46,984 bases of DNA from a virus (UHGV-0142121); one strand, 5' to 3'. Numbered from the stretch's first letter, positions 3,387 to 19,804 are shown. A program made the numbers and translations. Notes: generated by a model not told the origin, from the letters alone.

Positions 3387-6300
3387 TTAAACCGCCTGCA
3401 ACCGCTTCAGTTCGTTGTATTGGCCATCTGATAGTTGCCACATATTGTCAGCCATAAACAGCCCGGCAACCGTCGCCTGTATCAACCGTGGCGGCATAGT
3501 CGCCAGTTGTGCCAGTTCTTCCGGCGTCAGTGCGGTTCTCAGCCATGCAAATGGCACCGGCATCGCAGCGATAGCCTCTTCAATCGTCGTCAGCGTTGCC
3601 TCAATAAATGCCGTCTCAGCAGATCCAGATTGGGATCTTACATCTATATTTGATCGGCAATCGAGATCCGGTTCTTCCGGTGCCCCCACATCCAGTTTCA
3701 TCTGGACAAACGACAGTGATGCCTCGGCGCGACGCGCCAGAATTCCGTGAATGAATTCCCAGGATTCGGGGACGATTGACCACACGTAACCGAGGCCCTG
3801 TGAACGCGGTAGGCGGCGTTTTTGAGTCGCGTAACCGAATGCCTCACAGATCTGTTTGAAAACCGTCTCGGGGCGTTTCTGGCGGCCTTTAGGGTTTATA
3901 TAGCCACCGAACCGCAGGACGTTGTTGAAACGGTCCGCGGTGGTTGGGTCCATAAGTTTGGCCATAGCTTCCGCCATACCTTCCTGGCTGGCTTCACCGG
4001 CGCCGGTATCTGGGTTAATACCGCAGGTGGAGAAATACTCCCTGGCGGCCTTACGGTGCAGCGATGCGTACGTACGCTGGGTTACTTCCATCACCGGGCG
4101 GCTTTGGACGGTGTAGCCGGTTATTCCTGGCTGCATGCGGTCGAACTGCGCATCAGCTGCTTCGCGGTTGAGCGCGGTGATCGTTACAAATTCGTTACGC
4201 GGCCCTTTGCGGAATTGGTAGGTGAACGTGAAAGCCTGCTGCTCACGGTCAATGCGTGCGGCGGTCATTTCATCCATCGTCATCAGTTCGGCCAGCGTCA
4301 GTTTCTTCTTCCCGCCATCGAGCAGGAATTTCAGAGATTCCGGGCTGACATCCAGCATCAACTCTTTTTCGATATCCCAGCGCGCCAGTTGCGCCTGCTC
4401 ATCTTCAGATAGTGATCGCTTGCCCATCAGTTCGTCGCGTTCGTCTTCGTCCGGGGTTTCCACTTCCATATGGCGCAGAACGGTCATATCCCAGACCCGC
4501 TCTTTCGATGCCTTACGCAGTTCTTTGCCGGTTTCGCTGGCCAGCGAGTCTTCGGCCAAGTGGCTGACGTTATAGCCATCGGCGTAGAGAATGCAGATCA
4601 GGTTGTTGGCGAAATCGTTTCTGGCCTGGGCCTCCATCGCGGCAACTTTAAATTTCATGCGGACATAGGTGGTGTCCGCCAGACCAAGGGAAAGGCGGTC
4701 GCCATCCAGGATGGCGTCGGTAAATTCTTCGTTTATCTCGGCGGTTTCCAGCAGTGCCTGCAGGAACCCACGGCGGATGTTGTCGGCGTTCTCTTCGCGT
4801 ACGCCAGGCAGCTTGTTCAGGCCGACCATAAATTCGGTGGCGGTCCTGTCGCGGCGCAGCATCTGAATGGCGTCGGACGGCACTACCTGGCCGCAGAAGC
4901 AGCCGAAATGGCGGGTGAAGTGCCGTTCTTCGATCGAGACGCCAGAACTGATAGCCGGGCTATAAATCAGGCCATCGTAGAGTTTAGCGCGCTGGTTCGG
5001 CGCGTCGGTAAACGCCACGACTTCCTGATCCGGCTTTGTGTCCTGGCTGACGTAAAGCCATTTCTTTTCTGGCCAGCGGTCGCGCAGCTGCAGCAGCAAC
5101 TGTTCGGCAAAATTGGTTGAGTCGGTGGCCAGCAGGAATTTTTCGCCAGCGGCCACAGCTTTCAATACTTCAACCATTATGCGGTCGGTATCGGTGTAAA
5201 GCACGCGGCGCGCTTCGCGCGTACCGTCGACTTTTTTGTACTTCACATCAACCGGCAGCTCGATGACGTGGATCTGTGTCCAGGTCGACAGGCCGGTTTG
5301 TTCGCGTCTGGCCAGCGCCAGTTCGCAGAGGTCTACCAGGATATCGCTGGCGTCCGCATCAACCAGCAGTGCGTGGTCATCGCTGTACGCGATGGAGTCG
5401 ATAAGGCGATTGAACACATCAACCGGGTGCGCCATCGCTTTACCGGAAAGCGTAGCGCGCAGGCCCTGGGTAGCTTCATCCAGGCCAAAGAAATCGTGCT
5501 TGCGCATCAGCGGTTGCCAGCAGCCCTTCACGATTGAATTGATACAGATCGTCAGCTTGCTGGCATACGGCGCCAGTTCCTGATAGCCGGGGTCCTGATA
5601 GTGCAGGATATCGCAATTCATGCGGCGGCCATCGTCGGCACGCGTCATCATGTCCCAGAGGCCACCGATTAGCGAAACGCGGTGCGCAACCGAAACGCCA
5701 CGCTGCGCGCTGTGCATCATAGGGCGCAGCAGGTGCTTGGATTTGCCCGACCCCATGCCGGCACGGACTATTACCGGGCCATTCAGCGCTTTGATGTAAT
5801 CCAGCACGTCTTTGGTCATGTGCGGTGTATCGAACCGCTTATAGGTGATATGATCGGGGCGTATTGCCGGGTTCGTTACGCGCTCGCTGAATGATCGGAA
5901 AGCCTGGGCCTTGTCGCATTTCTGTTTGAAGGCGCGTTTAACGCGGTTATACACGGTACCGTGCAGCGCTTTGTCGGCGCCGAGCTGGTCCAGCTTCATT
6001 TTTATCAGCGAGATCAGCTCCTGCGGGGATAACTTGGACGGGCATTGCATCATGCCGGCATCAATGCAGCGTACCAGCTGGCGTGAGAACGCGCGGCGAT
6101 CGGAAACCGGCGCAACGGCCAGAGACAGCATTTCAGCATCAAAGGAATTGCCTGGCAGCTGCAGGCGGTTCTGTTTTGAAAACAGCTGGCGGTTAGTTTC
6201 GGTGGCACCACGCGCCAGGTGGAGATCGTTGAAATCGCTTAATTCAGTTTCGCTGCTGTCGAAAATCGGGAATGTGCAACGGACCTGCGGGAATTTCTTC

Positions 6301-7376
6301 ATCACGTCGATGCCGACTCTTAACCCGGTATTGCCCTTTCCATTACGGGCCGACTTCTGGTCGTTATCCAGTGCGCACCAGATTTCCATGCCTGGGTACA
6401 GGCTGACCAGCTGATCAACAACCTTGATAACGTTATTTGCTGACACAGCCACGACAACAGCGTCGAAGCGCTTTTTGGCAACGGCAAACACACTGGCGCC
6501 AGTCGCGAAGCCTTCAACAACGCAGATCCTGGTTGCGCCGCGCAGCTGGCCAATGATGTGGCACGAACCAGCAAAGTCACCGGAATCAACAGCGCGGGTC
6601 TGCAGCTTGTCGTTTCTCTCGGTGATTCGCTGCCAGCCAACAATCGGGCCAACGCGAGATTCCCTGTCTTCCCGGCGGTCATCAATATGAGACAGCGGGA
6701 TAGCCATAACAGTTTGTTTTTTAACCGTTTTAGAATTGGGACCATGGTCCCACTGGGTTACGCGCCTGACGTTGCAGTATGAGAAAATGGAGCTGATACC
6801 TTTCTTCACCGCGTATGGCCATGAACCATCTTCTGCCGGTGCGTTGGCGAATGCGGTGGAGAACTGCAGGTATTCGTTCAGGTCAGCGTCGCGGCGCTGC
6901 GACTCCATAAACACAGAGATAGCCTGCTGGCGTTCACGTTCCTGGCGGCGTGCCTCAGCACGTTTACGCTGTTCCAGCTCGCGCGCGGACAGTGGGACCA
7001 CGGTCCCACCGTTCTGTTCTTTGTACCGGCGATATTCGGCTATAAGGAACTGGAAACCACTCCAGGAGCCAGCGTCAGAGCCTTTACATACGAAGTTAAC
7101 AAACGGGTACTTGATGCCTTCCTGCGAACACTCCATGCGGGAGTAGATCTCAACCTTACCTTTCAGCTTTGGCTCAGTAACGGCAGGACCATGATGGGCG
7201 TACTTTGTGAATTTTTCGGCGGCACCGCGAGAGGCAGAAAGTTGAATATCACTGGCGCATTTATGCCAGTCGATGCCGGCAGCGCTCGCAAGATCACTCA
7301 ATTCATTTGATGCCGCGTCAAGCAGCGAAAACGGGTCAGAGTTAAATTTGTGTTGAAAAAAATCCGTTAATTTCAT
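3387..7376 (-). CDS. repA: Replication protein RepA (primase-helicase), about 1329 aa from ATG at 7376; track ORF extends to a TTG at 7388
   Basis: Size and architecture match N15 RepA; Walker A GMGSGKSK; GGTGA ribosome-binding site before the 7376 ATG. Confidence 0.88.
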   Translation of the reverse strand: MKLTDFFQHKFNSDPFSLLDAASNELSDLASAAGIDWHKCASDIQLSASRGAAEKFTKYAHHGPAVTEPKLKGKVEIYSRMECSQEGIKYPFVNFVCKGSDAGSWSGFQFLIAEYRRYKEQNGGTVVPLSARELEQRKRAEARRQERERQQAISVFMESQRRDADLNEYLQFSTAFANAPAEDGSWPYAVKKGISSIFSYCNVRRVTQWDHGPNSKTVKKQTVMAIPLSHIDDRREDRESRVGPIVGWQRITERNDKLQTRAVDSGDFAGSCHIIGQLRGATRICVVEGFATGASVFAVAKKRFDAVVVAVSANNVIKVVDQLVSLYPGMEIWCALDNDQKSARNGKGNTGLRVGIDVMKKFPQVRCTFPIFDSSETELSDFNDLHLARGATETNRQLFSKQNRLQLPGNSFDAEMLSLAVAPVSDRRAFSRQLVRCIDAGMMQCPSKLSPQELISLIKMKLDQLGADKALHGTVYNRVKRAFKQKCDKAQAFRSFSERVTNPAIRPDHITYKRFDTPHMTKDVLDYIKALNGPVIVRAGMGSGKSKHLLRPMMHSAQRGVSVAHRVSLIGGLWDMMTRADDGRRMNCDILHYQDPGYQELAPYASKLTICINSIVKGCWQPLMRKHDFFGLDEATQGLRATLSGKAMAHPVDVFNRLIDSIAYSDDHALLVDADASDILVDLCELALARREQTGLSTWTQIHVIELPVDVKYKKVDGTREARRVLYTDTDRIMVEVLKAVAAGEKFLLATDSTNFAEQLLLQLRDRWPEKKWLYVSQDTKPDQEVVAFTDAPNQRAKLYDGLIYSPAISSGVSIEERHFTRHFGCFCGQVVPSDAIQMLRRDRTATEFMVGLNKLPGVREENADNIRRGFLQALLETAEINEEFTDAILDGDRLSLGLADTTYVRMKFKVAAMEAQARNDFANNLICILYADGYNVSHLAEDSLASETGKELRKASKERVWDMTVLRHMEVETPDEDERDELMGKRSLSEDEQAQLARWDIEKELMLDVSPESLKFLLDGGKKKLTLAELMTMDEMTAARIDREQQAFTFTYQFRKGPRNEFVTITALNREAADAQFDRMQPGITGYTVQSRPVMEVTQRTYASLHRKAAREYFSTCGINPDTGAGEASQEGMAEAMAKLMDPTTADRFNNVLRFGGYINPKGRQKRPETVFKQICEAFGYATQKRRLPRSQGLGYVWSIVPESWEFIHGILARRAEASLSFVQMKLDVGAPEEPDLDCRSNIDVRSQSGSAETAFIEATLTTIEEAIAAMPVPFAWLRTALTPEELAQLATMPPRLIQATVAGLFMADNMWQLSDGQYNELKRLQAV
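6736..6753. repeat. sopC-like palindrome TTGGGACCATGGTCCCAC inside repA coding sequence
   Basis: Near-perfect 18-bp inverted repeat matching the dispersed family; encodes TQWDHGPN in RepA. Confidence 0.7.
7002..7019. repeat. sopC-like palindrome GTGGGACCACGGTCCCAC inside repA coding sequence
   Basis: Core TGGGACCACGGTCCCA, identical to the F sopC inverted repeat as I recall it; encodes GGTVVPL in RepA. Confidence 0.7.
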
Positions 7377-7405
7377 TATTTCACCCAAAAAAAGACGCTG
7401 CGCAG

Positions 7406-7435
7406 TTGCGCAGTGCAGGTGAAACGAACTACAAT
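7406..7435 (+). promoter_or_regulatory. Candidate sigma70 promoter (TTGCGC, 18-nt spacer, TACAAT) pointing away from repA
   Basis: Hexamers read by eye; overlaps TGCGCAG direct repeats at 7399-7413. Confidence 0.3.
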
Positions 7436-7441
7436 CGACTC

Positions 7442-7558
7442 ACAGTTGTGTCTTTGATCAGCTTTGTTCATTAAAGTGAATGCCAATCACTGACTGAGTT
7501 GAATCTAGACCTGTTTCACCCGAAAAGCCCTGGACGCCACATCCGGGGCTTTTTATTT
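7442..7558 (+). ncRNA. Candidate small RNA of about 115 nt ending in an intrinsic terminator (7526-7558); no ORF
   Basis: Promoter-like element upstream; 8-bp stem AGCCCTGG/CCGGGGCT with 9-nt loop followed by TTTTATTT; lies in the repA-cB intergenic region with no plus-strand CDS. Confidence 0.3.
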
Positions 7559-7644
7559 GTCTGAATCCAGAGGTGGTTAAAAAGTGCTCAATCCGCACGC
7601 TACCTCTGGGGCAAGTACATCCTGGTCAGTTGCTATCACGCCAC

Positions 7645-7674
7645 ATAATAGCCTCTGACAAGTACGTTTGACAA
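7645..7674 (-). promoter_or_regulatory. Candidate leftward promoter (TTGTCA, 18 nt, TATTAT) that would give repA a leader of about 260 nt
   Basis: Hexamers read by eye on the minus strand just downstream of the cB stop. Confidence 0.3.
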
Positions 7675-7694
7675 ACCTTGGTTACTAAAATTTA

Positions 7695-8324
7695 CTATCT
7701 GGCCTTAACTGCTATAGATTTAGCCACGCAGATAACGGGATGAATCAAAATAATTTCGTCAAGATCGATTATCACGCGCTGAGATCTGTCGTTCGGCGCG
7801 TCGAGAAACACTTTGCCATCACGCTTCGACGCTAACATCCTAATAAACGGGTCATTACCTGATTTTGTGACAACGACCACATCTTCCCCGGTCACCGGCT
7901 CGCGGTTTGGGTCTGCGATCAGCACTTCACCGATATGATACGGCGCCGCGACGTCGTTATCGACCATCAGGCCATACAGGGCCGCATCCTGAACATTGAT
8001 ATCAACGTATTCCCGGCAGTTCTGCGCCAGGCCGCTATTAATCATTTCCAGGTTGGGGCCTGTCGCGGTTGAACCGATAACAGGGACTCCACGAAACACA
8101 TCGCCGCCGGCACCAGTTAAGATCCACTCAACAGGACGGCCCAGCTCGCGCGCCAGCTTGATAGCCAGATCTAACGCGGGCATAGCATCACTATTTTCCA
8201 GGTGTGAAAGTCCTGCCCCGGTAATACCGACGCGTTCAGCTACGGCTCTCACCGAGAACTTTGATTTATTTCGCTTCTTCAGCTCTTCACGGCGAGCCTT
8301 CAGCCAATCACCACGTTTTTCCAT
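7695..8324 (-). CDS. cB: Prophage repressor CB (CI-like), 209 aa: N-terminal HTH plus C-terminal LexA/S24-type domain
   Basis: HTH-like segment VRAVAERVGITGAGLSHLE; divergent from a cro-like gene; position matches the N15 immB region. Confidence 0.8.
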   Translation of the reverse strand: MEKRGDWLKARREELKKRNKSKFSVRAVAERVGITGAGLSHLENSDAMPALDLAIKLARELGRPVEWILTGAGGDVFRGVPVIGSTATGPNLEMINSGLAQNCREYVDINVQDAALYGLMVDNDVAAPYHIGEVLIADPNREPVTGEDVVVVTKSGNDPFIRMLASKRDGKVFLDAPNDRSQRVIIDLDEIILIHPVICVAKSIAVKAR

Positions 8325-8345
8325 AGAGAGATATTAAATCAAATC

Positions 8346-8363
8346 TGTATAGCTAGCTATACA
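8346..8363. promoter_or_regulatory. Operator: perfect 18-bp palindrome TGTATAGCTAGCTATACA; a half-site copy TGTATAGCT recurs at 8415
   Basis: Perfect inverted repeat 22 bp upstream of the cB start, inside the cB/cro divergent intergenic region. Confidence 0.6.
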
Positions 8364-8390
8364 CGGCTAAAGGGAATATTAGTGTAAATT

Positions 8391-8435
8391 TTGACAAGCG
8401 TACTAGACAAAACTTGTATAGCTTGGTTAGTATCA
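8391..8435 (+). promoter_or_regulatory. Putative rightward early promoter(s) for cro (TTGACA at 8391; -10-like TAGTAT at 8428)
   Basis: Consensus -35 hexamer; -10 candidates overlap the operator half-site; no Shine-Dalgarno before cro, suggesting a short or absent leader. Confidence 0.4.
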
Positions 8436-8439
8436 TTTC

Positions 8440-8628
8440 ATGAAAACGAAAGAAGCCATAGCCGCCTGCGGCGGCATAAACAAACTCTGCGAACTGCTCG
8501 GCTGTACTCGCGTTGCGATCTACAAATGGGGAGAGGAAGTCCCCGTGCTTCGACAGTACGAGCTGGAGATTAAAACAAATGGCCGACTCAAATCTGACTA
8601 CACACTGCATAAAGAAAAGGATGCCTAA
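8440..8628 (+). CDS. cro: Cro-like repressor, 62 aa
   Basis: Small HTH protein (ELLGCTRVAIYKWG) divergent from cB. Confidence 0.75.
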   Translation: MKTKEAIAACGGINKLCELLGCTRVAIYKWGEEVPVLRQYELEIKTNGRLKSDYTLHKEKDA

Positions 8629-8631
8629 CCC

Positions 8632-9273
8632 ATGGGACAGAATAAACGTCCATCGCGAGACACAATGTCATCAGTGGTTATACGGGCAACCTTACGGATG
8701 CTCGATGAAACCGGCGGCAGTGTCGCACAATTCTCTACAACGCGCTTGATTCCTGCTCTGGAAGTTCAGGGGCTTGTTGATATGGGGTCTGAAGGCATCA
8801 ATGTCACAGATTACATGCGCTGGCGTAGCCGTTGCATTAAGCGAGCACAGCGCGTCCTGGCTGGCGATACACCGATGCCTGCAGATTGGGTGTTAACGTG
8901 GTTGTCATGTCTTCCGGAAGAGTACCGTAACAAGTGCTCTCAGAAGCTGGCAGCGATGCAGGGCCTGCAATGGGTCCGCATGCCTAAGTACAACCGTATT
9001 CGTGTTGATTCAGTCGACGCTGAAATTGACGAGATTACTGTGAAATTCGGTGCCGTTCTCGCCAACTCAGCGCCAGCCCAGGATGGCGTATACGATGGCA
9101 GTGATGACCAGCACGCCCTGAAGCAGCTGCAGAACCGCCTGTATGAGTTGTCGTCATACCTCTATCGGGAAATCCTGAATATAGAAATGGCCACCGGCAT
9201 TAAACCGGACCACGTTGAACTTGGTGCGCTGAGTCCGCTGGGCCATCAAGCAGGGGGCAAATATGCAGTTTAA
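8632..9273 (+). CDS. Hypothetical early protein, 213 aa (possible regulator)
   Basis: First gene after cro in the same operon; no confident motif. Confidence 0.45.
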   Translation: MGQNKRPSRDTMSSVVIRATLRMLDETGGSVAQFSTTRLIPALEVQGLVDMGSEGINVTDYMRWRSRCIKRAQRVLAGDTPMPADWVLTWLSCLPEEYRNKCSQKLAAMQGLQWVRMPKYNRIRVDSVDAEIDEITVKFGAVLANSAPAQDGVYDGSDDQHALKQLQNRLYELSSYLYREILNIEMATGIKPDHVELGALSPLGHQAGGKYAV

Positions 9274-9928
9274 TTTTGTTCGCAACGAGCTTACTGCAGC
9301 GCTCTTGTCGTTCTCAAAATCTCACCGCAATCAGATCGTCGCGATGGCAGAACGTGCGCCACTGCAGAGCCGATTTACTGCAAAGCCGCAGCGTGAAATT
9401 GATATCGATAACGACACTGTCATTGTCATTGATGCCGAGCCAATCAGCTACAGAGAAGGCAAGCGTTACCATACGAGCATGATCCCGGTATCGCCAGCCA
9501 TTTTTAGCCAGGTGTCATGGCGTAGCGCGTTATTGAAAATGCCTGAGCCGTATAAATCCTGGTTGAATTACTGCTACGGCGATTCAATTTCATTTGAATA
9601 TCAAACAATACTGACAACACATATCTGGCATTCCCTGCTGATTAACCTGGCTGAAAGCAAATCGCCAAAAATGAACGGCAAGACTGAAAGCAACTTAAAA
9701 GCACTTGCCTGGTTGGCTCTACAGGAATCAAAAAATTTCATTAACCGCGGCGAGCTTAAATACAGCCAGGAAGAATTGAGCCAGCTATGTGGTGTGAAAT
9801 ATGACCTATGGCGGAAGAATTATAAAAATCGCTGGGATGTCATGTTGGCCTGCAGTGTTCAAATGGATCGGGAGGCGTTAATACATGTCGACCAATTACG
9901 GAAGAAGCATATCAGCAACAGGCGGTGA
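9263..9928 (+). CDS. Hypothetical early protein, 221 aa (antiterminator Q-like role possible by position only)
   Basis: AGGGGG ribosome-binding site; no confident motif. Confidence 0.45.
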   Translation: MQFNFVRNELTAALLSFSKSHRNQIVAMAERAPLQSRFTAKPQREIDIDNDTVIVIDAEPISYREGKRYHTSMIPVSPAIFSQVSWRSALLKMPEPYKSWLNYCYGDSISFEYQTILTTHIWHSLLINLAESKSPKMNGKTESNLKALAWLALQESKNFINRGELKYSQEELSQLCGVKYDLWRKNYKNRWDVMLACSVQMDREALIHVDQLRKKHISNRR

Positions 9929-10187
9929 AATTCCTTCCTGCCTTTGCAAACAAGTAATGCATCACCACGCAGTAAAACCGAAATTAGTTAGATCTGAGCT
10001 ACGCAATGAATATTTGATGTTTTGTCCATCTTGCGGATTCAGAACACATCCTGACTGGTGTCGAAATGCCGTTATTGCGGAGTGGTGTGGCGCAAATAAA
10101 CCAGGTGACCAGCATATTCAGGAGCTTTGGTTAAAGCGCTATACAGAGCAACAAAATGAAAGTCTTGCAAAAAAGATGAATATTTAA
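9885..10187 (+). CDS. Zinc-ribbon protein, 100 aa, weak Lar-like signature
   Basis: CPSCG zinc knuckle followed by AVIAEW, reminiscent of the Lar restriction-alleviation family; GGAGG ribosome-binding site. Confidence 0.35.
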   Translation: MSTNYGRSISATGGEIPSCLCKQVMHHHAVKPKLVRSELRNEYLMFCPSCGFRTHPDWCRNAVIAEWCGANKPGDQHIQELWLKRYTEQQNESLAKKMNI

Positions 10188-10191
10188 CTCA

Positions 10192-10209
10192 TTGGGACCA
10201 TGGTCCCAA
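10192..10209. repeat. sopC-like palindrome TTGGGACCATGGTCCCAA (perfect)
   Basis: Perfect 18-bp palindrome in the 12-nt gap between two early genes. Confidence 0.75.
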
Positions 10210-10226
10210 AATCGGATGAGGTAATT

Positions 10227-10445
10227 ATGGCAGATAACCTTTTCGGGAAGAATCGCACTTATCACGATTCTGGTGATTTCACTCATCGCTATTTCTACTT
10301 ATTGCGCGGTTGCGTTCCCCCGCCAGCGAAACGGCAGGCAGAACCCAGCGTGCAGCCAGTAGCAAAGGCAAATACAAAGAGCCAACGTCAGCAAGCCATG
10401 GATAAGGCCAGGGCCAATGCTAATCGTCGTTATAAAGGAAAATAA
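10227..10445 (+). CDS. Hypothetical protein, 72 aa (start moved to ATG 10227; the track start lies inside the palindrome)
   Basis: GAGG ribosome-binding site 7 nt before ATG 10227. Confidence 0.4.
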   Translation: MADNLFGKNRTYHDSGDFTHRYFYLLRGCVPPPAKRQAEPSVQPVAKANTKSQRQQAMDKARANANRRYKGK

Positions 10446-10446
10446 G

Positions 10447-11385
10447 ATGAAAAACTTCCGTTGCGTATTCCCTTACATCAGCAAAACAGCAGTACCCGAA
10501 AACATCAACGAACTACTCATCGAACGTGCGTTTGATGGCCTGTCTGATTGTGAACGTGAGGGTAAAGGCTGGGCCAGAATTGGCGATGAACGCATGCTTA
10601 CTGTTGATGGTAAGTATCTTTTCCGTTATTTCGCCAGCAAGCGCCGTCCTGACCAGCTGGCGGTTCAGCGTTTGCTTAACGAACGTACCGATGAAGTAGT
10701 CGAAGACGGTCGGGAGGTTACTCCGGAACTGATGGAAGAGATGCGCTTCCAGGCTGAGAACGATGTGATGAAGTACTCCCCAATCAGCAGCACAGCGATC
10801 TATATCCTTATGTGGCCAGCGCGCCGCCTTCTGTTGGTTTCTGGCGGAACGGCGTCAAAGTGCGAGGATGCATTGTCATTTTTGCGTAACACGCTGGGTA
10901 ACCTGCATGCGATGCCATGGGGGAATTCACATTTTACCTCCACAGCAGTCACTAAGAATATGACTGAGGGAAATAGCATCTATAAGCTGCCACCTATGCT
11001 GGCTATTTCGCCTTATGGGAAAACGTTATTCACTGGTGAAGACACATCTTTAAAAATCACGCTTGATGGCGTATCGAATGATACTGACGATGCACGGAAT
11101 ATTCTTTCAGGAATGACGGCCCGTTCAGTTGAGATGTCCCTTTATAAACGCCCTGATAATGGGCAAATTGAAAACTTAGCGAATTTCAACCTTGTCATGC
11201 CGCCGAATGGCAACGTCCATTTAAAATCGTTCGATTACGACGATGATATGGAACGTGATGACTTATCGCAGGCATTGATTGCTGAAATGCACCTCGTGAC
11301 TAACTACACACATCAAATTCTATCCGGGCTGGAAGATTTTATCGGCGTGGATCTGGAAGATAATAGCCTCACGCCGCAGGAATAA
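10447..11385 (+). CDS. rdgC: RdgC-like recombination-associated protein, 313 aa
   Basis: Matches my recollection of E. coli RdgC at several blocks (GTASKCEDALSFLRNTLGNL vs [20 protein letters not shown]); start moved to ATG 10447 after AAAGGA. Confidence 0.65.
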   Translation: MKNFRCVFPYISKTAVPENINELLIERAFDGLSDCEREGKGWARIGDERMLTVDGKYLFRYFASKRRPDQLAVQRLLNERTDEVVEDGREVTPELMEEMRFQAENDVMKYSPISSTAIYILMWPARRLLLVSGGTASKCEDALSFLRNTLGNLHAMPWGNSHFTSTAVTKNMTEGNSIYKLPPMLAISPYGKTLFTGEDTSLKITLDGVSNDTDDARNILSGMTARSVEMSLYKRPDNGQIENLANFNLVMPPNGNVHLKSFDYDDDMERDDLSQALIAEMHLVTNYTHQILSGLEDFIGVDLEDNSLTPQE

Positions 11386-11387
11386 AT

Positions 11388-11588
11388 ATGGCATTGGATC
11401 TGTTTATGCAGGGGCCAATGACAGAACAGGAAGCTACGGAGCTGGCAAATAAGTACAAAGCATCAGGACGCCGGGTATCAATAACGGCGTCGTTTCAGCC
11501 AGGTCTTAAATATGTTCAGGTTTATCTGCCAGTCAGCAGATTTCGCCCCAGACAATCAGCGACATATCAACAAAGAATATGGAAATAA
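11388..11588 (+). CDS. Hypothetical protein, 66 aa
   Basis: AGGAA ribosome-binding site; tightly packed in operon. Confidence 0.4.
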   Translation: MALDLFMQGPMTEQEATELANKYKASGRRVSITASFQPGLKYVQVYLPVSRFRPRQSATYQQRIWK

Positions 11589-12514
11589 TGATGGATAATG
11601 CACATAAGACTATTTTACAGCTGTTAATGGCTACATGGCTTAAAAGTGATTTTCGTATTATTGATACGGAAACAACCGGGCTGGAAGATAATGATGAGAT
11701 TATCGAAATCTCGATCATCAATATGCGTGGTGATGTGCTGCTTGATACGCTTGTTAAGCCGACCCGCCCTATCCCCGCAGCTGCGACCGCTATCAACAAC
11801 ATCACCAACGAAATGGTTGCTGATGCCCCATCCTGGCAGGAAGTTTATCCGGCGGTAGTCGCCGCGATTGGTGGCCATAAGTGGCTTGCCTGGAACTCAA
11901 AATTTGATGCCCGGTTGATTACTCAGACCTGCATGATTACTGGCCTTTATAACGATTTGGCACCGGCGGCCATGCTGGAAATGTACAGCAGCATCCATTC
12001 CGGCCATATCGACGCGAAAGAGACTTACAGCCAGTGGTACGGCGCGCTTTCTATGAAGGATAGAAACTTTGTTCGGCAGTCTCTGTCGATGGCAGTAGTT
12101 CAGCAGGGCGTAACGGTCAGTGCTGAAGCTCACCGTTCACTCGCCGACTGCCAGCGCGTTCTCCGCGTACTAGAAAGCGTCTGCAATGATCCACACCTAC
12201 CAGCTGATGGCGCCGACCTTCGCCAAGGTGATGAGTCCGGGCTGGCGCCCTGCCCGTTCTGCTATGGTCCTCCATCGATGTTTGTTCATCACCTGCATGG
12301 CCTCCAGTACAAGCCGTTGTGGAACCCTGCCAACTATGGCGAGGACGGCCTGTATGCCGGCGCCGTTGTTTTCTGTCATGAGTGCGGCGCACATGGCGAA
12401 GAGGCCACCGATGTTGTGTTTGATGATAGCGACGTCGAGCAACTGGAGAACGCCGCCAAAAAGAACTGGAACACGCGCGATAAGCGCCATCAGGACCTTT
12501 ATGAATCCAAATAA
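11579..12514 (+). CDS. DEDDh (DnaQ-like) 3'-5' exonuclease fused to a C-terminal Lar-type zinc ribbon, 311 aa
   Basis: Exo motifs IIDTETTG, LAWNSKFDARL, HRSLADCQ; C-terminus CPFCYG...CHECGAHG...AAKKNWNTR matches the Lar family pattern. Confidence 0.7.
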   Translation: MEIMMDNAHKTILQLLMATWLKSDFRIIDTETTGLEDNDEIIEISIINMRGDVLLDTLVKPTRPIPAAATAINNITNEMVADAPSWQEVYPAVVAAIGGHKWLAWNSKFDARLITQTCMITGLYNDLAPAAMLEMYSSIHSGHIDAKETYSQWYGALSMKDRNFVRQSLSMAVVQQGVTVSAEAHRSLADCQRVLRVLESVCNDPHLPADGADLRQGDESGLAPCPFCYGPPSMFVHHLHGLQYKPLWNPANYGEDGLYAGAVVFCHECGAHGEEATDVVFDDSDVEQLENAAKKNWNTRDKRHQDLYESK

Positions 12515-19669: not shown

Positions 19670-19692
19670 AACCACCTTCGGGTGGTTTTTTT
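19670..19692 (+). terminator. Intrinsic terminator closing the lysis operon
   Basis: Stem AACCACC/GGTGGTT with TTCG loop, then TTTTTTT. Confidence 0.65.
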
Positions 19693-19804
19693 ATGCGCAT
19701 CGCACGCGCACATCAAAGAGAGTCTTTCAGTAGTGAGCCTGGGTAATCCGTTAACTCTTGGCGGCTTTGCCGTGCGACAGGCTCACGTCTAAAAGGAAAT
19801 AGCT

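Follow-up and report, generated by a model that had tools for sequence, protein, structure and literature searches.

In the linear phage-plasmids N15, PY54, and phiKO2, copy control is usually described as the action of the repressor CB on the replication gene repA alone. CB is known to bind the OL operator region upstream of repA in N15 and phiKO2 and to lower the copy number (PMC4997575), as has likewise been described elsewhere (PMC4488713). When CB is inactivated, N15 vectors rise only from ~5 to ~50 copies (PMC2847241), a roughly ten-fold increase from which we infer that there is room for a second limiter. Here, we examined a candidate for such a limiter, a small antisense RNA predicted opposite the repA leader of a viral sequence of 46,984 nucleotides (UHGV-0142121; the whole of this stretch is called the window below), within the 318-bp spacer between repA and the repressor gene cB. 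This arrangement has a precedent in the GenBank record of the N15 immB region (U45242.1), which annotates “Pinc; promoter of putative antisense RNA” at the homologous place, together with a “putative terminator of RNA antisense to repA transcript,” a “putative terminator of repA leader transcript,” and “PL; putative promoter of repA gene,” the last with CB operators. These features coincide with the promoter (TTGAAA-17-CACAAT) and terminator that we located independently in N15. The phiKO2 record labels the hairpin a “putative bidirectional” terminator, and the PY54 record carries no annotation at the homologous place. The open-access full-text literature contained no mention of an antisense RNA for N15-like repA and no experimental test of Pinc, and the most likely sources lie outside that scope. 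The N15 prediction reportedly goes back to Lobocka et al. (1996). The assumption of the original prediction for this window, that such a circuit was undescribed for N15-like replicons, is thus contradicted by the N15 record. On the basis of position and layout, the window element appears to be a divergent member of the control unit that the N15 record predicts. Systems of this kind are classic, and our findings extend and sharpen that prediction rather than overturn it; what is new is the breadth of its conservation, a hypervariable specificity region, a predicted translational switch, and a repeated terminator loop.

Several other replicons offer points of comparison. In the IncFII plasmids (R1/NR1), the repressor CopB is combined with the antisense RNA CopA, which acts on the repA leader (CopT); this constitutive RNA of ~90 nt with two stem-loops is directed at the leader and prevents translation, although it leaves the repA Shine-Dalgarno (SD) sequence uncovered. 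RNAI/II of pT181 and RNAIII of pIP501, the latter with CopR, bring about antisense-driven transcription attenuation. In phage P4, the CI RNA controls the operon of alpha, a primase-helicase, and its seqB matches two sites in the target transcript, seqA and seqC.

The antisense unit of the window comprises a putative promoter, an untranslated RNA, and an intrinsic terminator. The Pinc-type promoter (positions 7406–7435, plus strand) has a −35 hexamer TTGCGC (7406–7411), an 18-nt spacer, and a −10 hexamer TACAAT (7430–7435), begins 30 nt from the repA ATG, and is directed away from this gene, with a predicted start at ~7442. Direct reading of the sequence confirmed the hexamers of the original prediction; with 8 of 12 consensus matches, they lie under the scanner threshold (9/12) and were not listed by the scan. 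The candidate RNA (7442–7558, plus strand; ~113–117 nt) would consist of stem-loop I (7442–7514, apical loop at ~7480–7486), a single-stranded spacer UUUCACCC (7514–7521), and the terminator as stem-loop II. The predicted fold of a 121-nt RNA contained these two stem-loops, with an energy of −37.4 kcal/mol (z = −3.2 versus shuffles). The terminator (7522–7558, plus strand), described as convincing in the original prediction, has a stem of 13 pairs (7522–7534/7542–7554) and the 7-nt loop CGCCACA, followed by TTTTTATTT up to 7558. It was the best of seven terminator-like sites in the region 6800–8600, for which shuffles gave 2.0 ± 1.8. A U·G pair in this stem on the plus strand is a C·A mismatch on the minus strand, where the hairpin is followed by only four U (UUUUC); the minus-strand version would therefore be a weaker terminator for the cB and leader transcripts. 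Rfam gave no relevant covariance-model match at E ≤ 1 in the region 6500–12500. Short open reading frames (ORFs) of 36–46 amino acids in the spacer were considered and rejected as not credible, because relatives carry a ~40-nt indel across them, in agreement with the earlier statement that no ORF fits here.

To place the unit in a comparative frame, 50 loci with a related RepA were gathered from GenBank and from collections of viral, genome, and metagenome sequences. They fall into at least five clades: the PY54-like group (to which the window belongs and in which the RNA occurs in a long and a short form), L068 with L071–73, L069, L074, and the N15/phiKO2 group. At all 50 loci, the strand opposite repA carries a TTGnnn-17/18 nt-[T/C]AnAAT element starting 29–38 nt from the repA ATG, followed by a transcript body of 70–113 nt and then by a GC-rich hairpin with a run of T5–8. 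The TTG of the −35 hexamer and A2, A4, A5, and T6 of the −10 hexamer were invariant throughout, and T1 was present in all except the N15 group (CACAAT). The antisense promoter of PY54 was read from the alignment and was not listed by the scan. Between clades, the conserved sequence of the spacer is almost confined to the antisense hexamers, the terminator, and the hexamers of the repA promoter, and the rest cannot be aligned. The antisense hexamers and the terminator do not vary even between clades with just ~40–54% identity in the N-terminal regions of RepA, and in the PY54-like relatives both the stem and the loop of the terminator are invariant. The layout as a whole, with a repressor-controlled repA promoter, a long leader, and this convergent unit ending in a strong terminator, is kept in all relatives analyzed (50/50 loci), which supports the originally proposed antisense copy control.

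Within the N15 group, pairwise comparison of 26 distinct sequences gave an identity of 0.95 for the promoter block and 0.97 for the terminator, with 0.90–0.93 for the flanking coding DNA, and only 0.66 (minimum, 0.40) for the RNA body between promoter and terminator. A hypervariable body between an invariant promoter and an invariant terminator is what would be expected of a specificity (incompatibility) determinant. When the RNA bodies of 17 representatives were compared with dinucleotide shuffles, the antisense strand folded with a mean z of −1.54 (negative in 16 of the 17), and the sense strand was no better than the shuffles (mean z = 0.07). Taken together, these comparative signs are of the kind that an antisense copy-control RNA would leave, and they strongly support the proposed interpretation.

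The target of this RNA would be the repA leader. The leftward repA promoter (7645–7674, minus strand) was confirmed by the scan with 10 of 12 consensus matches: −35 TTGTCA (7674–7669), 18 nt, and −10 TATTAT (7650–7645), with a predicted start at ~7638. It lies ~80 nt beyond the antisense terminator and is conserved, with counterparts located in PY54, L068, and L069. The predicted leader runs for ~262 nt to the ATG at 7376 and overlaps the antisense RNA, close to the ~260 nt first estimated. Upstream, an OL-like operator region (7656–7693) overlaps the repA −35 hexamer and is a direct repeat of sequence in the cB–cro spacer (8392–8438); the two regions are probably the OL and OR sites of the CB repressor of this phage. 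The sequences common to both are TGACAAG...TTGACAAA and CTTGGTTA, and sharing of OL and OR sequences is likewise seen in L068 and L069. The 5′ part of the leader, outside the antisense RNA, contains an inverted repeat, CCAGAGGT/ACCTCTGG. The repeat predicted here is real, and its arms occupy 7567–7574 and 7602–7609, 2 nt away from the span of 7569–7611 given for it. In the PY54-like relatives, the arms differ yet stay complementary (CCAGAGGT/ACCTCTGG, CCAATT/AATTGG, CCAAAA/TTTTGG, and CCCAAA/TTTGGG). The repeat is missing from the clades other than the PY54-like one, and the overall fold of this segment is no better than that of shuffles. At the other end of the leader, just upstream of the repA SD sequence, we found a small minus-strand hairpin that had previously been missed (CTGCGCAACTGCGCAG followed by a run of U7, 7413–7388). 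In the mRNA, the hairpin CUGCGCAACUGCGCAG (7398–7413) is followed by CGUC and U7 (7388–7394) and contains the complement of the Pinc −35 hexamer. It scanned as terminator-like on the minus strand and is conserved in the PY54-like relatives; the homologous small hairpins of L068, L069, and L074 lack the U-run.

A second feature that the original prediction had missed, a repeat TTTCACCC at 7379–7386 and 7514–7521 with its complement GGTGAAAC at 7418–7425, suggests how binding of the RNA could affect translation. In the mRNA, the SD region GGGUGAAA (7387–7379, minus strand) lies upstream of the repA ATG, and the whole ribosome binding site, GGGUGAAAU plus the ATG (7376–7374), covers 7374–7387, with a start codon conserved in all relatives. 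An exact SD-like copy, GGGUGAAA, which we term the SD mimic, is found in the leader at 7514–7521 (minus strand), within the antisense-covered region. The complementary anti-SD segment (GUUUCACCU / GUUUCACC; 7417–7425, minus strand) is located just outside that region. SD, anti-SD, and mimic co-vary in the relatives. Their central position is A/U/A in the window (GGGUGAAA / UUUCACC / GGGUGAAA) and G/C/G in L003 and L007 (GGGCGAAA / UUUCGCC / GGCGAAA), PY54 has GCGGAAA with UUUCCGC, and between L068 and L071 the mimic:anti-SD helix shows a double change from G-C to A-U. For 15 representatives, the duplex energies of mimic and anti-SD averaged −13.8 kcal/mol for cognate pairs, −8.2 for non-cognate pairs, and about −8 for shuffled sequences; the corresponding values for anti-SD and SD were −14.1, −9.3, and about −8 kcal/mol. 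This co-varying long-range pairing spans 7525–7417, suggesting that the sense leader RNA extends across the region that the antisense RNA overlaps. It thereby speaks against a repA transcription start to the left of 7442, with which no overlap would exist.

The predicted fold of the free leader pairs the anti-SD with the mimic, and the two together form the base of a long hairpin. When positions 7442–7558 were blocked, to represent a duplex with the antisense RNA, the anti-SD moved from the mimic onto the SD, and the unpaired probability of the SD fell to ~0. Blocking raised the opening energy of the region −14 to +3 by 3.5–6.5 kcal/mol in eight representatives of the non-N15 clades. With shuffled anti-SD sequences, the rise was 0.0–0.5 kcal/mol, and the observed value was reached by 1 of 240 shuffles. 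The mean unpaired probability over −16 to +3 showed no effect of blocking on SD accessibility, because this measure averaged in the U-run; the opening energy and the per-base probabilities revealed the switch. In addition, the single-stranded spacer UUUCACCCGAAAA of the antisense RNA could itself form 13 bp with the SD region. The SD-mimic/anti-SD/SD switch is thus a prediction that draws on sequence and on thermodynamic models.

From these observations, the small conserved unit opposite the repA leader very probably specifies a copy-number-control antisense RNA, and we consider it rather probable that this RNA lowers RepA synthesis in the way described in the following, including by the proposed switch. 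A constitutive plus-strand promoter (7406–7435) and a strong terminator (7522–7558) would yield an untranslated RNA of ~115 nt, fully complementary to the middle of the ~262-nt repA leader. Because the RNA would be made from the plasmid itself, its concentration would track the copy number, and its pairing with the leader would lower RepA synthesis as a second negative loop on top of the CB repression of the repA promoter. In the free leader, the mimic (7521–7514) would pair with the anti-SD (7425–7417), so that the true SD (7387–7379) stays usable. The antisense RNA would complement the 5′ arm of this hairpin, including the SD copy, but not the anti-SD; its binding would release the anti-SD, which would then close the repA ribosome binding site, and the spacer UUUCACCCGAAAA could additionally pair straight with the SD region. 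The variable stem-loop I would set the specificity, that is, the incompatibility between relatives.

A number of observations weigh against this account. The plus-strand promoter matches the consensus at just 8 of 12 positions and, taken alone, is not above chance. A covariance model built from the N15 RNAs fails to recognize the RNA of the window. Even in the model of the free leader, the SD is not fully open, being partly paired with the early coding sequence, and in the N15 group the change in opening energy was ~0, so that no switch is predicted there; the mechanism in that group may differ from the predicted switch at the ribosome binding site. Swapping the arms of stem-loop I among members of the N15 group gave −9.1 versus −8.0 kcal/mol, a difference that was not significant. 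Furthermore, the promoter block doubles as the 3′ arm of a hairpin conserved in the sense leader, and part of its conservation could therefore be structural. Separately, RNAalifold on aligned RNAs of the N15 group recovered no pairing beyond the terminator and four outer pairs, and no compensatory changes.

The behavior of the N15 group bears on an alternative in which the antisense RNA exists and acts otherwise than by occluding the ribosome binding site, namely by RNase III cleavage of the long duplex, by transcriptional interference between convergent promoters, or by enhanced termination of the sense transcript at the shared hairpin. Since the N15 group keeps the RNA without a predicted switch, another mode would have to operate there; moreover, the convergent promoters are ~200 bp apart and have a bidirectional terminator in common, and a second copy of the terminator loop (described below) lies in the region of cB read-through. 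The three-way co-variation of SD, anti-SD, and mimic would nevertheless be hard to explain if access to the ribosome binding site were irrelevant, as would the higher opening energy found, with shuffle controls, in the non-N15 clades. We regard a purely different mode as unlikely; these modes and the RBS-occluding mechanism that we favor are not mutually exclusive.

In another alternative, the locus would make no functional antisense RNA: the hairpin at 7522–7554 would serve only as a bidirectional terminator that ends cB and attenuates the leader, and the “promoter” block would be kept for the sake of the sense-leader and SD-adjacent hairpins. The hairpin is indeed terminator-like on the sense strand too in N15, the PY54-like relatives, and other clades, and it is as a terminator of the leader transcript (N15) or as a bidirectional one (phiKO2) that its homologs have been annotated; the plus-strand promoter, for its part, lies under the scan threshold. 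The complement of the −10 hexamer pairs in the sense hairpin, and in the short-form relatives a −10 change from TACAAT to TAAAAT is accompanied by a complementary change in the partner arm. A helix constraint alone, however, would let both arms drift, whereas the hexamers and their 17/18-nt spacing are retained by clades that differ in the partner arm and in all remaining spacer sequence. The longer T-run on the antisense side (T5–8 versus U3–5), the wobble in the window hairpin that is functional on the plus strand only, the folding signal specific to the antisense strand, and the hypervariable body flanked by two invariant blocks also argue against this alternative, which we judge to be improbable. 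Attenuation of the pT181/pIP501 type, in which binding of the RNA would turn the hairpin 7413–7398 and its U7 into a terminator just before the repA SD, is very improbable: the hairpin and U-run are terminator-like in the window and PY54 and sit between the antisense target and the SD, but the hairpin forms in the free and bound models alike and hence independently of the RNA, its stem and the U-run are four nt apart, and the U-run is missing in the L068, L069, and L074 homologs.

Beyond its role in the antisense unit, the terminator loop itself recurs in the spacer. The loop ACGCCACAT (7534–7542) has a second exact copy in the same orientation at 7638–7646, adjoining the repA −10 hexamer, and these are the only two exact copies in the 47-kb window. 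The second copy forms the center of a palindrome around the −10 hexamer (GCTATCA-CGCCACA-TAATAGC; 7632–7652, minus strand), so that this center equals the heptaloop of the terminator (sense UGUGGCG). Both copies co-vary among the clades: they read CGCCACAT in the window group, CGGCACAT in L069, CGGCAAAA in L068 and L071, and CGGCAAC in L074. The co-variation holds in four or five clades, with the loop variants CGCCACA, CGGCACA, CGGCAA, and CGGCAAA. In a shuffle test, an equally long match arose in 0–11 of 2,000 shuffles, depending on the clade. The match is less complete in L074 and in PY54, which has 7 nt at the promoter, and the longest match that the test gave for either of them is elsewhere. 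Mismatches between the palindrome arms are mostly U·G on the sense strand, which points to a hairpin in transcripts coming from cB. The antisense RNA might accordingly have a second target, its terminator loop either “kissing” a hairpin located in the untranslated sequence 3′ of cB in read-through transcripts or pairing with the melted promoter strand; we offer this as a speculative idea with a low probability of being correct. If it were true, the transcript of the immunity repressor and the replication control RNA would sense each other, coupling lysogenic immunity to copy control, somewhat like seqA/seqB/seqC of phage P4. In N15, the loop is inverted, and a second copy was not found.

Other roles for the loop motif were also considered. 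An origin iteron or a CB operator was ruled out, since the motif is missing from repA (the origin part) and from the cB–cro spacer; a leader peptide starting at an AUG in the motif was ruled out by the lack of an AUG in L068, and a CsrA site by the lack of a GGA there. DNA looping between the two copies was unsupported because their spacing varies from 86 to 104 bp. Separately, the terminator loop of the N15 group on the antisense strand (GTTTGCCGA; e.g., L014, 2348–2383) is the inverted form of the loop of clade L068 (TCGGCAAAA), and compared with L068 it looks flipped within an otherwise similar hairpin.

When the window unit is set beside N15 Pinc, the two agree in layout and differ in sequence. 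Both lie in the cB–repA spacer on the strand opposite to both genes, with a promoter that is directed away from repA and begins 30–38 nt from its ATG, an RNA of 80–115 nt that would end at a hairpin doubling as the leader terminator, and CB operators that overlap the upstream repA promoter. The hexamers, in contrast, are TTGCGC-18-TACAAT in the window and TTGAAA-17-CACAAT in N15, the terminator loop of N15 is inverted relative to that of the window, and the N15 RNA has no detectable sequence similarity to the window RNA. A covariance model of 16 N15-group RNAs scored N15 at 90.5 bits, whereas in the window it hit only the hairpin, on the minus strand, with 9.5 bits (E = 5.7); the correspondence is therefore one of position and architecture. 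In addition, the SD-mimic/anti-SD switch is predicted in the clade of the window and in three others, but not in the N15 group.

Like the class of cis-antisense copy-control RNAs that includes CopA and RNAI, the window has a putative sense–antisense overlap and stem-loops for recognition and termination. The resemblance to IncFII is one of two layers: as is generally known of IncFII, a repressor gene is located upstream of repA in the same orientation, its product shuts an internal repA promoter, and read-through from the repressor gene is possible. The predicted constitutive RNA of the window is also of the IncFII design, in that it would block translation from the leader without covering the repA SD. 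The differences are that R1 uses a leader peptide (tap) coupled to repA translation, whereas the window has no conserved leader ORF (indels), that the Rep families differ, with a primase-helicase in the window, and that the repressor of the window is the prophage immunity repressor. With pT181 and pIP501, the window shares an antisense RNA against the rep leader upstream of the ribosome binding site and a terminator-like hairpin between target and ribosome binding site, and, with pIP501, a protein repressor that acts as well; in the models, however, the hairpin of the window forms independently of antisense binding, and the U-run is missing in three clades. The CI RNA of P4 is likewise a small RNA that controls a related primase-helicase replication gene, and its seqB, with two target sites, recalls the terminator loop of the window, which is present twice on the sense strand. 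Unlike the convergent cis-antisense RNA proposed here, CI RNA is processed from a transcript of the same sense and causes premature termination.

For a group of phage-plasmids in which CB is usually regarded as the only regulator of copy number, these comparative data suggest that a second, RNA-based loop is universal and conserved in this replicon in all enterobacterial clades sampled. The variable stem-loop is likely to be an incompatibility determinant, which bears on the question of which of these increasingly common phage-plasmids can share a host cell in Klebsiella, Salmonella, and E. coli. For most clades, the SD mimic/anti-SD/SD switch provides a concrete, testable model. The proposed control is also relevant to linear cloning vectors based on N15, such as pJAZZ, in view of their only about ten-fold rise in copy number without CB.

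The genes flanking the spacer are those assumed in the original prediction. repA (3387–7376, minus strand; ATG at 7376–7374) is a primase-helicase type replication gene and the proposed control target; its product has a Toprim domain match (E = 2e−5) at 25.4 bits, just under the Pfam gathering cutoff of 27.2 bits. cB (7695–8324, minus strand), which lies upstream of repA in the same orientation and encodes the prophage repressor, has HTH_3 and Phage_CI_repr matches, that is, a CI-type helix-turn-helix. The divergent cro (8440–8628) is followed by an ORF of unknown function and then by Q. The window is a PY54-like telomere phage-plasmid, linear, in which the genes lie in the order repA, cB, cro, Q. 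The ORF that separates cro from Q (213 amino acids; 8632–9273, plus strand) has no Pfam match; it takes the position of ORF42 of PY54 and is missing from N15 and phiKO2.

At the DNA level, the window differs from N15. In the phage collection, its spacer matched only PY54 and P840, with 79% identity over the repA start, and in the plasmid collection it matched four linear Salmonella plasmids only; no match to the spacer was found in the complete E. coli genomes. The N-terminal region of RepA is 65–77% identical to those of PY54-like viral contigs and ~52% identical to those of N15/phiKO2-like ones; over the N-terminal 400 amino acids, identity is 65% to PY54 RepA and ~52% to N15 RepA. A partial RepA with 96% identity comes from Salmonella Enteritidis. 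An exact metagenome scan with a 19-mer of the terminator returned 19 loci, of which L063 was the only true relative and the others were chance matches. This locus (metagenome contig OKVX01004734.1) is nearly identical to L003 but, ~90 nt beyond the terminator, has lost the repA promoter/OL region together with the 3′ end of cB. Pinc and the terminator are intact there, as is the RNA body between them, and repA would depend on read-through from the truncated cB.

Two further observations concern the rest of the window. The palindrome GGGACC[AG][CT]GGTCCC (≤2 mismatches) occurs in 11 dispersed copies, at 2126, 6738, 6994, 10194, 16171, 19647, 22483, 28198, 34721, 38697, and 44556, against 0.25 expected by chance; two of these lie inside repA, 370–640 bp from its start. 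The palindromes resemble the centromere sites of the N15 sopC type, of which N15 is said to have four, fewer than the eleven of the window. Finally, a segment of ~120 bp (19681–19801) is 91% identical to the lambdoid phages mEp390, mEp237, mEp213, and mEp043, in which it is unannotated.

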